A stretch of DNA of 56,572 nucleotides from Alphaproteobacteria bacterium (GCA_030835905.1 JAURQX010000055.1:1-56572); one strand, 5' to 3'; counted from the stretch's first letter, positions 1,423 to 5,500 are shown. Made by a program: numbers and translations. The notes: generated from the letters alone by a model not told the origin.

Positions 1423-2162
1423 TTGAGAGACTCAGAAAATAGAAATGATGAATCTTTATTTCTTTTGATTAACCTTGAAGATTTTATTCAAGGACTTGAT
1501 AAAAGTCTAGGTAAAAAAACATTTGCAAAGTTTGAAACAGATAAAAATGTTGCAAGACTTGTAAAACAATGTCATGATCAAGTTATAAATCCAGAAAATA
1601 TTGATAAAATGAAACTAGTCAAATTTTTCTTTCTGACATATATGTTGCCATTAAGTATCAGCAATATCTTGAACAAAACAAAGATCAGTCACGACCTGAT
1701 TTAAAAAGCACTACGACAGATGAGTTTCTTGAAGCTCTAGTTTCACTAGAGGATCGTGCAGCAGAGCATGGGATTAGAATCAATGGTAATGCACAACCTA
1801 CTTTGAACAACATTTGCAATGAGATTCTTAGCAATTCTAACCTTATCAAAAATAATAATTGCAGCAATACTCTGGAGACCGCTACTAATAGTAATACTGT
1901 AGAGGCTACTCCTATTGGTAATAGTGATACCGTAGAGTCTGTTGCTCCTAACAATTCTTCAGCTGTTAACGAATCCTTGGAACCATCGCCAATTAGCCCA
2001 AAAAAAACAGGGAGTTTATTCGACAAATTTTCATCATATAAGGCATCACTCTATATTACTTCAGCAATATTAAAATGCATTCCTGGAACATCTTGCCAGA
2101 AGCCAGTTACCACTAAACTATCTCAAGAATCAAATCGAGACACCCAAATCAATGGTGGCTAG
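1423..2162 (+). pseudogene. Frameshifted orphan gene (ORFs 1423..1704 and 1803..2162 are one gene), paralog of 2385..3557
   Basis: The 1803 frame is open back to 1608; adding one A to the A4 run at 1606-1609 joins the frames and gives DIYVAIKYQQYLEQN, matching QRYAAIQYQKWLEKEN in the neighbour. Confidence 0.75.
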
Positions 2163-2213
2163 GTTTATATTCGATATTTGTGCTTTTAAATATTAAACCG
2201 CGTATAAATCTAT

Positions 2214-2242
2214 TTGACAAAGTAGCGTTATTTTGGTAATAT
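2214..2242 (+). promoter_or_regulatory. Putative sigma70 promoter with extended -10, upstream of 2385
   Basis: TTGACA-17 bp-TAATAT with TGn immediately upstream of the -10; perfect palindrome TAACAATTGTTA at 2278-2289 downstream. Confidence 0.6.
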
Positions 2243-2384
2243 AGAAGTTGTTAAAATTTTAGTGATATTATTTACACTAACAATTGTTAATAACACCCAA
2301 AGATTTGTTTTTTATTTTAACTTTTTTTAGTTTAAAACCCAATTATGTATAGATCAAAAGAGTTTTTTAATAAATTTATTTGGT

Positions 2385-3557
2385 ATGGCTGGAAATTATG
2401 AAGACCTTGAAAATACAATTTCTGTGGTTGATAAGGAGACTTTTGAAAATCTTTCACCTGAAAAACAACAAAATTTCGCTCAAGATTCACACACTAATAT
2501 TCTGGAAGGAAAGCAGGTTGATGACTACCAAAGATATGCGGCAATTCAATATCAAAAATGGCTAGAGAAAGAAAATGTTTTACAGCAGAATAATGGAGCG
2601 CCACCAACCTATGAAGAAGCGGTAAGTTCTAGTACGCAACAGCATTATCCCGTTTTCGATTTTACTGATAGCTCAAATAAGCGTCCTCTTGAACCAAATA
2701 TAGTTACAGGTGAAATAATATATCCAGATCATACTATTCAAGAATCTCCGCTTTCTCGAGTTTATAGTGATCCTACACCACTCTATCCCCAAACTCAGCA
2801 AAATCAAGATTTTTATGGGATTGGAGCATTTTTTGGATGTGCTATAGATTTATTACAAAATCAACTAAGTCCATTATTTTTACAACCACAAACAACTATT
2901 AGTGCCCAGCCAGTTCATCAAGAAAAGCAATCACCTCTTTTTACATATTTTGATAATCAAGGGGAGTTACAAAATATTCATATTGCAGACGAAGTAAGTC
3001 TTAATCAAGCAATAGATGTTTTGCAGAATAATTTGTATTCGAATGATGTTGATACTAATAATTTAAATTTAGGTTCAAAACAACAAGTAATAACCAGCCC
3101 AACTATTGATTATCCTTATAAAAATGTTAATGGTCGTGGTCAACTTGTAATGGATGATAATTTGGAAGGTAGTAAAGATGGATTGATTAGTTATTTAAAA
3201 GGATATGGCCAAGAAATAGGATGGCAAATTAATGAAGTAAAAAATAATGCTACGCCAGCTACAGATATTTCTACTCAAGATACAGTTGCTGCTACTCCAG
3301 CTACAGTTGCTGCTACGCCTGTCGATCTAGAATTGAAAGATAATACTACTACTCAAAATGATAATTCAGTTCGATCGAATAATTTGGACAATAATGGTGA
3401 CTTTTTAAATAAAATATCAACAGCCATTTCTGATGGGTTATCGAGTCTAGCATCACAAATCTCAAAAATGATTCCTTGCACTTCGTACTCAAAAGCCAGC
3501 GCGGTTAATTTAGTCGAGCAATCTCTTGGAAATAACGGGCCAGAAAGGGCAGCTTAA
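2385..3557 (+). CDS. Hypothetical acidic, Q/N/T-rich, probably disordered protein; candidate secreted effector
   Basis: 390-aa ORF with PPTYEEAV motif, TVAATP repeats and C-terminal IPCTS...L motif. Confidence 0.8.
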   Translation: MAGNYEDLENTISVVDKETFENLSPEKQQNFAQDSHTNILEGKQVDDYQRYAAIQYQKWLEKENVLQQNNGAPPTYEEAVSSSTQQHYPVFDFTDSSNKRPLEPNIVTGEIIYPDHTIQESPLSRVYSDPTPLYPQTQQNQDFYGIGAFFGCAIDLLQNQLSPLFLQPQTTISAQPVHQEKQSPLFTYFDNQGELQNIHIADEVSLNQAIDVLQNNLYSNDVDTNNLNLGSKQQVITSPTIDYPYKNVNGRGQLVMDDNLEGSKDGLISYLKGYGQEIGWQINEVKNNATPATDISTQDTVAATPATVAATPVDLELKDNTTTQNDNSVRSNNLDNNGDFLNKISTAISDGLSSLASQISKMIPCTSYSKASAVNLVEQSLGNNGPERAA

Positions 3558-3567
3558 TTATAAAAAA

Positions 3568-3972
3568 ATGACAAGTTGGCTAAAATTAGATTTAGAAGAT
3601 ATTAACTATAATAAAAAATTAGAGATTGAGAAAGAAATTGAATTTTTAACTAATCTTTATGGTTTACATAAAAATATCTTTAAAATCGATGGTTGCTACT
3701 TAAATGATAATCAAAAAGATGTATTTGATATATCTTTTGTCATTTCAAACAAACAAAATCAAAGTTATTTATTTCCAAATAGTAATATTTACTCAGATTT
3801 TCTTTTGCCATCTGAGCTAAAAATTAAGAAATCTGATTTTAACATTCCCCAAAGTAGATTTAGTCAATTTAGAAGAGAGTCCAGTATTACTCCAAGAAGC
3901 TCGGTTAATGCTATTTACTTTTCAAGTATAGTTATCTCTCCAAGACTACACTTCGATACAAGGCTTTGTTAG
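3568..3972 (+). CDS. Hypothetical protein with C-terminal PxSS...I motif
   Basis: ATG at 3568 follows the 3557 stop and is preferred over the overlapping 3526 start; no family recognised. Confidence 0.6.
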   Translation: MTSWLKLDLEDINYNKKLEIEKEIEFLTNLYGLHKNIFKIDGCYLNDNQKDVFDISFVISNKQNQSYLFPNSNIYSDFLLPSELKIKKSDFNIPQSRFSQFRRESSITPRSSVNAIYFSSIVISPRLHFDTRLC

Positions 3973-4201
3973 GAAAGTTTAATTAAAAACGAACTTTGCA
4001 ATTGATCATTTATTAAAATCGATTAATTTTTTTAATATTTGCTATCTTTTTTTTGTATGTTTGGGTTAAATTTTTAATCTTAATTAAACCAAATCTAATT
4101 TTTGAGATTAATAATATTAAAAAGATGAAGAATATAGGTTAAGTTCCTATAAATATATCTAAAGATTGAATTTATTAATATACTATTTCCATAAATCATT
4201 T

Positions 4202-5224
4202 ATGACCAAAAACAGTCAGTCTGCTTTGCAAAAAATTAAAAATCTTGAGGTTGCTTTTGGCAAAACCCCTTTGGTTGAAGTGAGTTTTAAGTTTGCTGGA
4301 CAGTTTCGAAAAATTTATGCCAAATATGAAGCTTTTAATTTTAGCGGTTCAATTAAAGATCGTATTGCTATTCATATCTTAAAAAAAGCTTACGAAAATA
4401 AAGAAATTAAAGAAGGAGATTTAATTGTTGAAGCCACTAGTGGCAATACTGGCATTGCTTTTGCCGCACTTGGTCGGGCTTTGGGACATAAGGTTAGAAT
4501 TTACATGCCTGATTGGTTAAGTTCTGAAAGATACGCTAAAATTGAGCTTTTAGGTGCTGAAGTTATTCGCATCACCAAAGAACAAGGTGGCTTTATTAGA
4601 TCAATTGAAGAAGCACGACAAATGGCCGCCAATAATGAAAATGTCTACTGCCCAGAGCAATTTACTAACATTGAAAATATCAACGCTCATGCCTTGACCA
4701 CGGCGCCAGAAATTTTTGCGCAATTAAAATCAATTGATCTTGATTTACATCATTTTGTAGCTGGTGTTGGCACTGGTGGTACGGTGATGGGCATGCTAAA
4801 ATATTGCACAGAAAATAATAAAAATGTTAGCTGCCATCCTTTGGAGCCATCAAACTCACCTACCCTAACCACTGGTGGCAAGAAAATTGGTAAACATCGC
4901 ATTCAAGGCATTTCTGACGAATTTATTCCTGATATTGTTGATCTTAATAAATTAGATCCAATTATCAGCGTTGATGATGGTGATGCTATTATTATGGCGC
5001 AAAAATTAAATAAATGTGGGCTTTCAGTAGGTATTTCAAGTGGCGCCAATTTTATTGGTGCTTTAAAAGCCATTAAAGATCGCTCTGAAAATGAGGTTGC
5101 AACCACAATTTTTTGTGATTCGGCGCTTAAATATTTCTCAACCGATCTTTGCCGTAAAGAACCTGTTAAGCTAGATTTTTTAAGCACTGATGTTGAGATT
5201 TTGGGTTACAGATTTATAGAATAA
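4202..5224 (+). CDS. cysK: PLP-dependent cysteine synthase family protein
   Basis: SGSIKDR PLP lysine, EATSGNTG, GVGTGGT, HRIQGI, GISSGAN; ATG at 4202 preferred. Confidence 0.85.
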   Translation: MTKNSQSALQKIKNLEVAFGKTPLVEVSFKFAGQFRKIYAKYEAFNFSGSIKDRIAIHILKKAYENKEIKEGDLIVEATSGNTGIAFAALGRALGHKVRIYMPDWLSSERYAKIELLGAEVIRITKEQGGFIRSIEEARQMAANNENVYCPEQFTNIENINAHALTTAPEIFAQLKSIDLDLHHFVAGVGTGGTVMGMLKYCTENNKNVSCHPLEPSNSPTLTTGGKKIGKHRIQGISDEFIPDIVDLNKLDPIISVDDGDAIIMAQKLNKCGLSVGISSGANFIGALKAIKDRSENEVATTIFCDSALKYFSTDLCRKEPVKLDFLSTDVEILGYRFIE

Positions 5225-5236
5225 ATTATAGATTTT

Positions 5237-5500
5237 TTAAGTCCTTTCAAGCTTGAAATTGCTTGGTATTCCTTCAGGTAACGCTGATCTTAGTTTTGGA
5301 GTTTTAGGGCTTGCACTTGGTAAAAGACCATCTTTCTTTGATGATTGCACCATATCTGAATTATTTTTTGGAATAGCCTTACCTGATTTGTCAGCCACAA
5401 AGCTTTTATCCTGATTAAACTTTGCAACGGCTTGTTTGAATGCAGTTATTTTACAGTAATTATAATGTTCAGGAATAGTTGGTAAATTACTCTTATTCAT
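5237..5500 (-). CDS. Small hypothetical protein with C-terminal PSAS...L motif
   Basis: 87-aa ATG-started ORF filling the gap between cysK and pepF. Confidence 0.6.
   Translation of the reverse strand: MNKSNLPTIPEHYNYCKITAFKQAVAKFNQDKSFVADKSGKAIPKNNSDMVQSSKKDGLLPSASPKTPKLRSALPEGIPSNFKLERT

Follow-up and report, generated by a model that had tools for sequence, protein, structure and literature searches.

A P-x-x-S-P motif at a set distance from the C-terminus of orphan proteins in a Rickettsiales-like bacterium as a possible address tag for type IV translocation

C-terminal signals of described systems and the P-x-x-S-P motif

In Rickettsia, the C-terminal sequence of RalF (PMC4546372) and the C-terminal tail of RARP-2 (PMC11077975) each bind the coupling protein RvhD4. 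The present analysis concerns a candidate tail signal that came to light in a stretch of 56,572 nucleotides (GCA_030835905.1 JAURQX010000055.1:1-56572; hereafter the window), which is contig C39 of an alphaproteobacterial genome of 1.25 Mb (31.5% G+C, 57 contigs, 88% complete) whose label as Rickettsiales rests on the rvh hallmarks of its type IV secretion genes. The motif is P-x-x-S-P, mostly P-S-x-S-P, the first Pro of which lies 19-28 residues before the C-terminus, and within the window the clear tag is found in one open reading frame (ORF) only, at 5237-5500 on the minus strand. An initial annotation of the window had described a related pattern, P-x-[TSA]-S followed by L or I, near the ends of four orphan proteins including this one, and had regarded it as a portable export tag that marks an effector repertoire; from our point of view, the idea that orphans without a Sec signal share a portable tag, set at a constant distance from the stop, stands, but for a different and sharper motif than the one then written.

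Arg-rich C-terminal tails were reportedly found on Agrobacterium VirF, VirE2 and VirE3 by Vergunst in 2005. More generally, the signals of VirB/VirD4 type IVA systems are of the uncleaved type and lie in the last 20-30 residues, within a hydrophilic tail and on proteins without a Sec signal, which also holds for the 29 proteins that carry the motif in this genome and two relatives (the carriers, described below), and the likeness extends in the present genome to an Arg near the very end and to the encoded VirD4 and rvh-type machine. The known type IVA signals are described as preferences of charge and composition and not a discrete motif at a set distance (PMC3814349; PMC8047123). For the carriers, in contrast, charge and the number of basic residues do not separate them from other proteins, whereas the five-residue Pro/Ser motif does.

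In Legionella, the E-block is read by DotM. This element, EExxE within the last 30 residues of Dot/Icm substrates, resembles the present motif as a short element at an approximately fixed distance from the C-terminus of many unrelated effectors (PMC3814349), but it is Glu-rich instead of Pro/Ser-based and belongs to a type IVB machine; EExxE occurs in the last 30 residues of 0/29 carriers, compared to 22/2639 other proteins. In Xanthomonas, VirD4 likewise recognises a conserved, lineage-specific C-terminal element of type IV secretion system (T4SS) substrates, the XVIPCD (PMC8047123), but this represents a conserved domain, whereas the tails of the carriers have about five residues and the end in common and are otherwise not alignable.

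Gene sets were derived by accepting ORFs in order of decreasing length as long as they did not overlap one already taken, a simple greedy procedure which for this genome gave 1154 ORFs of at least 50 residues and 1077 of at least 80; distances were counted from stop codons, the positions of which are unaffected by the ORF-calling rule. Among the 1077 proteins, P..SP occurs 45 times, and 12 of these occurrences lie 21-30 residues from the end, with 1.34 expected. When all gapped three-residue patterns were screened without bias across position bins (475,080 tests), P..SP at 21-30 ranked fourth (p = 5.7e-9; 0.0027 after Bonferroni correction), behind three patterns that make up the common tail of a paralogous pilin-like family. 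At 19-28 residues from the end there are 14 matches, compared to 0.94 in shuffles of the last 60 residues (a number that 0/1000 shuffles reach), while the flanking positions are at expectation (1 vs 1.31 at 5-18; 4 vs 2.95 at 29-60), and for the narrower PS.SP the count at 19-28 is 8 vs 0.07 in shuffles. One of the 14 matches is a housekeeping protein, CarA. The Ser codons of the motif mix the AGY and TCN types (AGY/TCN 5/5 at position 2 and 5/9 at position 4), and the signal hence resides at the protein level; an origin as a DNA repeat was rejected on the same grounds.

The pilin-like family itself, represented in the window at 22897-23787 (plus about 20 other genes genome-wide), is encoded there on the minus strand and has an N-terminus like A-F-S-L-I-E-L-S-I-V and the tail E.YL.QK[YW]GI at 11-20 residues from the end (YL..K in 21/130 occurrences, 3.9 expected). 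YL..K / E.YL.QK[YW]GI was the strongest pattern of the screen and a candidate for a second tail tag, and was rejected as the shared tail of paralogs.

The range of 19-28 was picked after viewing this genome, but motif and range were both fixed before the replicate genomes were examined. These comprise a whole genome of the same genus (G001; 1.31 Mb, 37 contigs), a 520-kb partial sample from another genus of the same family (G021) and partial samples of 540 kb (G026) and 400 kb (G036) from other families, where genus and family are classification labels of the genome collection used. In total, three genomes of the family and two from other families were thus covered, with the family holding at least 60 species in at least 17 genera in the collection. 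The motif fell into the fixed range in 7/42 occurrences in G001 (1.30 expected, p = 2.8e-4) and in 6/27 in G021 (0.82 expected, p = 1.3e-4), which amounts to 13/69 for the two together (2.11 expected, p = 1.6e-7), whereas G026 gave 0/25 (0.78 expected, p = 1) and G036 0/12 (0.37 expected, p = 1). The G001 matches include CarA and an IS66 transposase, both of which are likely due to chance. Pooled over the three family genomes, 27/114 occurrences of P..SP lie in the ten-residue range (3.4 expected), which has a sharp boundary on either side, at 19 and at 28.

Proteins that carry the motif

The carrier set was obtained by widening the motif to P..[ST]P, and four rows representing conserved housekeeping proteins (a CarA pair and a glycine-dehydrogenase pair) were removed before counting, which left 29 carriers, namely 15 in this genome, eight in G001 and six in G021. 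The comparison of orphan with core proteins that the initial annotation had put forward was positive when run on the sharper motif, as this is present in 12/173 proteins without a G001 homologue vs 5/871 with one (odds ratio 12.9, p = 9e-7). The carriers include just two paralogue pairs. Of 19 proteins tested, none is matched over its full length in G001, and 15/19 have no match there at all; the remaining 4/19 match in part at 23-40% identity (to a distant homologue, to an aminotransferase paralogue or through ankyrin repeats), while the proteins common to the two genomes have a median identity of 63%. Searches of carriers in 40 relatives or in 5.8 billion proteins, the latter with two carriers plus the window protein at 5237-5500, returned only self-matches. 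Every carrier gene sits singly between conserved core genes on bacterial contigs, and their codon scores of 0.16-0.34 are gene-like (accepted genes: mean 0.228, 5th percentile 0.108; shadow ORFs: 95th percentile 0.174).

Contamination with host DNA was rejected, as each carrier gene is flanked by genes that are conserved with the same-genus genome.

A hydrophobic N-terminus is found in 0/29 carriers, compared to 23% of other proteins, and in the last 18 residues, where S/T, P and G are abundant, the hydrophobic fraction is 0.20 vs 0.36 in the others. Sortase and exosortase signals (LPXTG, PEP-CTERM, GlyGly-CTERM) resemble the present motif in that a short element with a Pro lies about 25-35 residues before the stop, in some cases with basic residues at the very end. 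Such signals, however, depend on a signal peptide at the N-terminus and on a hydrophobic helix that follows the motif, and neither is seen in the carriers. An Arg as the last residue is present in 9/29 carriers vs 126/2705 other proteins (p = 5.8e-6), and an Arg within the last three residues in 14/29 vs 356/2705.

In this genome, Pfam families scored above their cut-off in 4/15 carriers, namely two with Ank repeats, one class I/II aminotransferase paralogue with extensions and one with a DXD glycosyltransferase region, and in none of the other 11. Of the 14 carriers from G001 and G021, 13 were scanned; two have Ank repeats, one each matches LRR_6, NADAR, an iron-redox enzyme and IS66, and seven have no Pfam family. 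A single-sequence AlphaFold2 model of a 195-residue Ank carrier was too poor for a reading of the tail (mean predicted local distance difference test score, pLDDT, 43).

Two G021 carriers end in the CaaX-like sequences CVTM and CSIS, and CCTIL and CCTL form the ends of two tails of this genome that score high in the position matrix described below but are not among the 29. The respective genes are found at C8 8944-9555 (+) and C1 140-559 (-) in this genome and at L099:10988-12376 (+) and L112:9980-10999 (-) in G021; CCTIL follows a Lys-rich stretch and CVTM follows G-K-K-S. Such ends would suggest prenylation inside a eukaryotic host.

Some of the tail-bearing genes attracted attention in their own right. 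On contig C23, at about 38-59 kb, five large genes that are tail-bearing or matrix-high are clustered and may represent an effector island; they encode a 602-residue DXD glycosyltransferase-like protein (at 38460), a 1659-residue Ank-containing protein (42003) and proteins of 1872 (48137), 372 (54161) and 923 residues (56208). The aminotransferase paralogue (C37 40116-41750, +) is about 23% identical to two ordinary class I/II copies on C57, has an N-terminal extension of about 160 residues and P-D-N-S-P at 22 from the end, and looks like a housekeeping fold that was recruited to the tagged set. A paralogue pair on C55 (8610-9674 and 10813-11631, both +; 30% identity) has P-S-R-S-P-S at 33 and 23 from the end, respectively, and an N-terminal block D-P-[IL]-L-D-N-I-I... 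that appears F-box-like by eye, with no Pfam match.

Type IV machinery and possible readers of the tail

Multicopy VirB6, duplicated VirB8, VirB9 and VirB4 and the lack of VirB5 are described as hallmarks of the rvh system (PMC11077975). This genome encodes VirD4 and VirB4 in one copy each, VirB8 and VirB9 in two copies each and four VirB6-like proteins (open frames of 1070-2080 residues); PF03135 revealed no further VirB4 in the 88% complete genome. Judged by these genes, the search having covered VirD4, VirB4, VirB6, VirB8 and VirB9, the system matches the rvh type save for the second VirB4. VirD4 is encoded in all five genomes, and no match to TLC (ATP/ADP translocase) was obtained in this genome or in any control genome.

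When compared with type IV signals, the carriers show the C-terminal position without a Sec signal and the hydrophilicity, but not the net charge or basic residues, and a machine with VirD4 is encoded in this genome. In terms of the S4TE features that were applied, hydrophilicity (features 11 and 12) sets them apart, with a negative hydropathy of the last 25 residues in 28/29 carriers vs 72% of others and a total hydropathy below -200 in 17/29 vs 11%, whereas features 9 and 10 (net charge of at least 2 and at least three basic residues in the last 25) are taken up below.

The reading that we favour, and to which we would give just short of an even chance, is that the motif belongs to a family-specific C-terminal address tag, most likely for type IV translocation to the host cell. 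The tag would be a hydrophilic, low-complexity tail of about 30 residues with few hydrophobic residues, in which the motif P-[S>G,N,T]-x-[S>T]-P, in many cases continued by x-x-P, starts 19-28 residues before the stop, and which in this genome often ends in Arg; it would be borne by unrelated, species-specific proteins that have eukaryote-like modules and no signal peptide. The sharp distance from the stop argues that the motif is read together with the free C-terminus. The rvh-type system would most likely select proteins via this tail, and the reader would be the coupling protein VirD4 itself or an adaptor specific to the family. This reader, which we infer to be a type IV substrate receptor, could sense the free C-terminus (the carboxylate and the Arg) plus the rigid Pro-Ser-x-Ser-Pro at a set distance upstream, and the tagged protein would then be handed into a eukaryotic host cell. 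The motif with its sharp position, its portability, its confinement to orphans and its recurrence in two relatives, as well as the secretion system, are established by the data; recognition of the tail by the system and exit of the proteins from the bacterial cell are both predicted. The more specific claim, that P-S-x-S-P at 19-28, with terminal Arg in this genome, constitutes a discrete, ruler-like rvh substrate-selection code in one uncultured Rickettsiales-like family, is slightly less likely still, and in our view its chances would be somewhat below even. In the literature searched, no bacterial secretion signal of the P-S-x-S-P or PxxSP type is described, nor a discrete, ruler-like signal of this kind for any type IVA system.

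Several observations weigh against translocation by the type IV system as the function of the tail. VirD4 is 56-60% identical across families, yet the samples from the other families had 0/25 and 0/12 occurrences in the range; a conserved coupling protein alone thus does not explain the motif, and the family restriction suggests a family-specific adaptor or a function on the host side. At least three basic residues (H/R/K) in the last 25 are found in 23/29 carriers vs 81% of the others, which is no separation, and a net charge of at least 2 in 7/29 vs 31%. The terminal Arg is strong in this genome alone, being the last residue in 6/15 carriers (and within the last three in 10/15), compared to 2/8 in G001 and 1/6 in G021. 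A de novo screen of G001 and G021 alone (477,132 tests) placed S.SP 16th, PS..P 19th and P..SP 76th, none of them Bonferroni-significant. Furthermore, the gene sets come from a crude longest-ORF rule, three of the comparison genomes are partial samples, and the [ST]-P core resembles eukaryotic proline-directed phosphorylation sites.

The last of these points leads to a different explanation, namely that the tail acts within the host as a short linear motif, with the Ser-Pro used by a proline-directed kinase or a phospho-Ser/Pro-binding module, C-terminal elements such as CaaX or Arg fixing the distance and other features of the tail driving export. The eukaryotic phosphorylation and docking consensus is [ST]-P, in its mitogen-activated protein kinase (MAPK) form P-x-[ST]-P. 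The carriers share with it an [ST]-P core, which is invariant by definition, in a disordered region with S/T and P enriched around the core, and several of them contain eukaryote-type modules, while some tail-class proteins have the CaaX-like ends mentioned above. In addition, PxxSP appears in the parts of the literature that were searched solely as a eukaryotic phosphorylation-type motif, and a motif that is family-specific, with a T4SS that is order-wide, would fit adaptation to a host. However, kinase and docking sites are normally independent of position, whereas here 27/114 occurrences fall into one ten-residue range at a strict distance from the stop, and the remaining ones do not exceed background. 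The details of the sequence differ as well, since Pro at +1 is found in 29/29 carriers by definition, but the MAPK-type Pro at -2 in 0/29, the upstream Pro being at -3 in 29/29, and CaaX-like ends occur in just 2/29. On balance, we regard action within the host as unlikely, albeit as the main rival of the address tag.

It is also conceivable that the tail is read by another pathway, be it type I secretion or a protease that processes C-termini by cutting at or close to Pro-Ser-x-Ser-Pro. Three TolC-like outer-membrane genes are present in this genome, uncleaved C-terminal signals are used by the Ank and TRP effectors of Rickettsiales in type I secretion (PMC10225607), and the carriers are slightly acidic, with a net charge per residue of -0.013 vs +0.016 in other proteins. 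This acidity is the only feature of type I substrates (RTX proteins or Ehrlichia TRPs) that fits, as the last 50 residues contain less of the LDAVTSIF set than those of other proteins (fraction 0.479 vs 0.520; for L, I, V and F 0.172 vs 0.295), GGxGxD repeats are found in 0/29 carriers, and the Pro-rich tails are unlike the amphipathic-helix signal of HlyA (PMC10225607). No protease is implicated. We hence consider both variants of this explanation to be doubtful, with a low probability.

The window proteins and what the tail may mean

A third alternative is that the tag corresponds to the pattern of the initial annotation, P-x-[TSA]-S with L or I 12-13 residues later, and that all four window proteins are substrates. 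The four ORFs, 1803-2162 (+, ORF1), 2385-3557 (+, ORF2), 3526-3972 (+, ORF3) and 5237-5500 (-, ORF4), and their C-termini are exactly as had been quoted, including the Pro at 26, 27, 26 and 27 residues from the end, the L/I 12-13 residues further on and the Arg within the last three residues in three of four (ERAA, TRLC, ERT). It also holds that none of the four has a hydrophobic N-terminus that could represent a Sec signal peptide and that housekeeping proteins of the window lack the pattern, as the regular expression finds, up to 62 residues from the end, solely these four ORFs on the whole contig. The suggestion that the first two are paralogs is not supported by a direct comparison (BLASTP E = 15). 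Support for a kinship is limited to a likeness of the tails by eye and a 12-residue block upstream of ORF1, in frame after the break in 1423-2162 described below, which resembles residues 51-62 of ORF2 (E = 0.033).

Chance, which had been left open, can be judged from the regular expression P.[STA]S.{8,9}[LI] with the Pro at 19-28, which has 13 matches vs 1.37 in shuffles (0/1000 reach this number) and, after removal of the four ORFs, 9 vs 1.28 (0/200). The excess is thus genuine, but it is carried by matches with a second Pro, which the majority of the additional matches have at +4. When the second Pro is excluded and the L/I kept, 4 vs 1.30 remain in this genome (shuffle fraction 0.065), 2 vs 1.46 in G001 and 1 vs 0.62 in G021; moreover, L/I/V/M/F at +12 to +15 does not exceed the background of 36%. 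What speaks for the pattern is that P.[STA]S[^P] at 19-28 remains weakly enriched, about two-fold, in this genome (8 vs 4.14, shuffle fraction 0.055) and in G001 (9 vs 4.60, 0.04), and that P-D-T-S-I occurs at 26 from the end in a G001 protein that is distantly homologous to one of the carriers.

The four proteins differ in how well they qualify as members of the class. A position matrix was trained on 26 tails with ORF4 held out; at a threshold of 6, it gave nine non-training matches in the position range vs five in each of two control ranges. ORF4 scored 11.7 and ranked within the top 20 of 1077 proteins, ORF1 (5.3) and ORF2 (6.0) lie in a grey zone but still in the top 50, and ORF3 (1.7) is background. 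P-x-[TSA]-S...L/I is an approximation of the real signal, and we think it improbable that the pattern itself is the tag and all four proteins are substrates. Since terminal Arg is enriched in this genome, the remark of the initial annotation on Arg nevertheless captures a real feature of it.

The only clear member of the tail class in the window, ORF4, encodes an 87-residue orphan (codon score 0.175). Its P-S-A-S-P codons are at 5306..5320 (-), with the first Pro as the 27th residue from the end, and its C-terminus ...K-L-E-R-T has an Arg at -2 (5243..5245, -), terminal Arg being the second putative element of the tag in this genome. Among the 5.8 billion proteins, searched in the range of 47-153 residues, only ORF4 itself was found.

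ORF2, a 390-residue orphan with a gene-like codon score of 0.273, is a grey-zone candidate without the second Pro, and its tail (3474-3554, +) reads P-C-T-S-Y...E-R-A-A. The sole database homologue (P0003, 37% identity) retains V-N-L and, 27 residues from the end, the Pro, but has P-K-N-A at the site, so that the [TSA]-S part is not conserved in the ORF2 family. No match to ORF2 was found in 60 other genomes of the family, and an ESM Atlas model (pLDDT 0.45) provided no usable look-alike.

The three short ORFs have intermediate codon scores (0.141-0.175). ORF1, listed with 119 residues (codon score 0.141), has the grey-zone tail P-G-T-S-C... (2082-2159, +). Upstream, its frame remains open as far as 1608, with no start codon, and overlaps an ORF at 1423-1704 (+) around a T5 run (~1621-1625). 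This run probably marks the break in a gene of which 1423-1704 is the 5' and ORF1 the 3' part, and 1423-2162 as a whole looks like one gene with a one-base frameshift, which would be either a pseudogene or a homopolymer sequencing error. ORF3 comprises 148 residues from a TTG or 134 from the ATG at 3568, the latter being the more likely start (codon score 0.144); its tail (3892-3969, +; P-R-S-S-V...T-R-L-C), which is relatively hydrophobic by eye, is indistinguishable from background, and no tblastn match was found in the same-genus genome G001.

None of the four ORFs matches a Pfam family above the cut-off. Their neighbours are a tRNA methyltransferase-like gene, a pyridoxal phosphate (PLP)-dependent enzyme and an M3 peptidase, and the window is otherwise of a housekeeping type. 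It also holds rmlA, rmlB, rmlC and rmlD for dTDP-rhamnose, a DegT-type aminotransferase, FdtA, an RgpF-like protein and GT2 enzymes at 32663-43310 (+), as well as genes for histidine, purine, haem and isoprenoid biosynthesis, a biosynthetic range that is broad for a genome of 1.25 Mb.

Lastly, it is very improbable that the motif results from chance, from the composition of disordered tails with much Ser and Pro or from faulty ORF calling, because, although S, T, P and G are over-represented in the tails, the ORF caller is crude and the range of 19-28 was chosen with this genome in view, shuffles that keep the composition of the tails yield 0.94 vs the 14 observed, stop positions are independent of the caller, the codon scores of the carriers (0.16-0.34) are gene-like, and the pre-specified replication in two genomes (p = 1.6e-7) is accompanied by 0 matches in the two samples from outside the family.

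Type IV effectors of Rickettsiales are hard to spot, since their signals are loose preferences of charge and composition, most of these bacteria are not amenable to genetic manipulation and fast turnover defeats homology searches. If the motif acts in the host, it would represent a compact case of a bacterium imitating a eukaryotic Ser-Pro motif, with its dependence on the distance from the C-terminus left unexplained. If, on the other hand, the motif is part of an address tag for type IV translocation, a family-specific receptor would be implied, be it an adaptor or a surface of VirD4, and the motif would provide a concrete peptide to search for this receptor as well as an experimental handle on substrate choice in type IVA systems. 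Effector repertoires would then be readable directly from metagenome-assembled genomes, and candidate effectors could be listed from sequence alone in uncultured members of the family.

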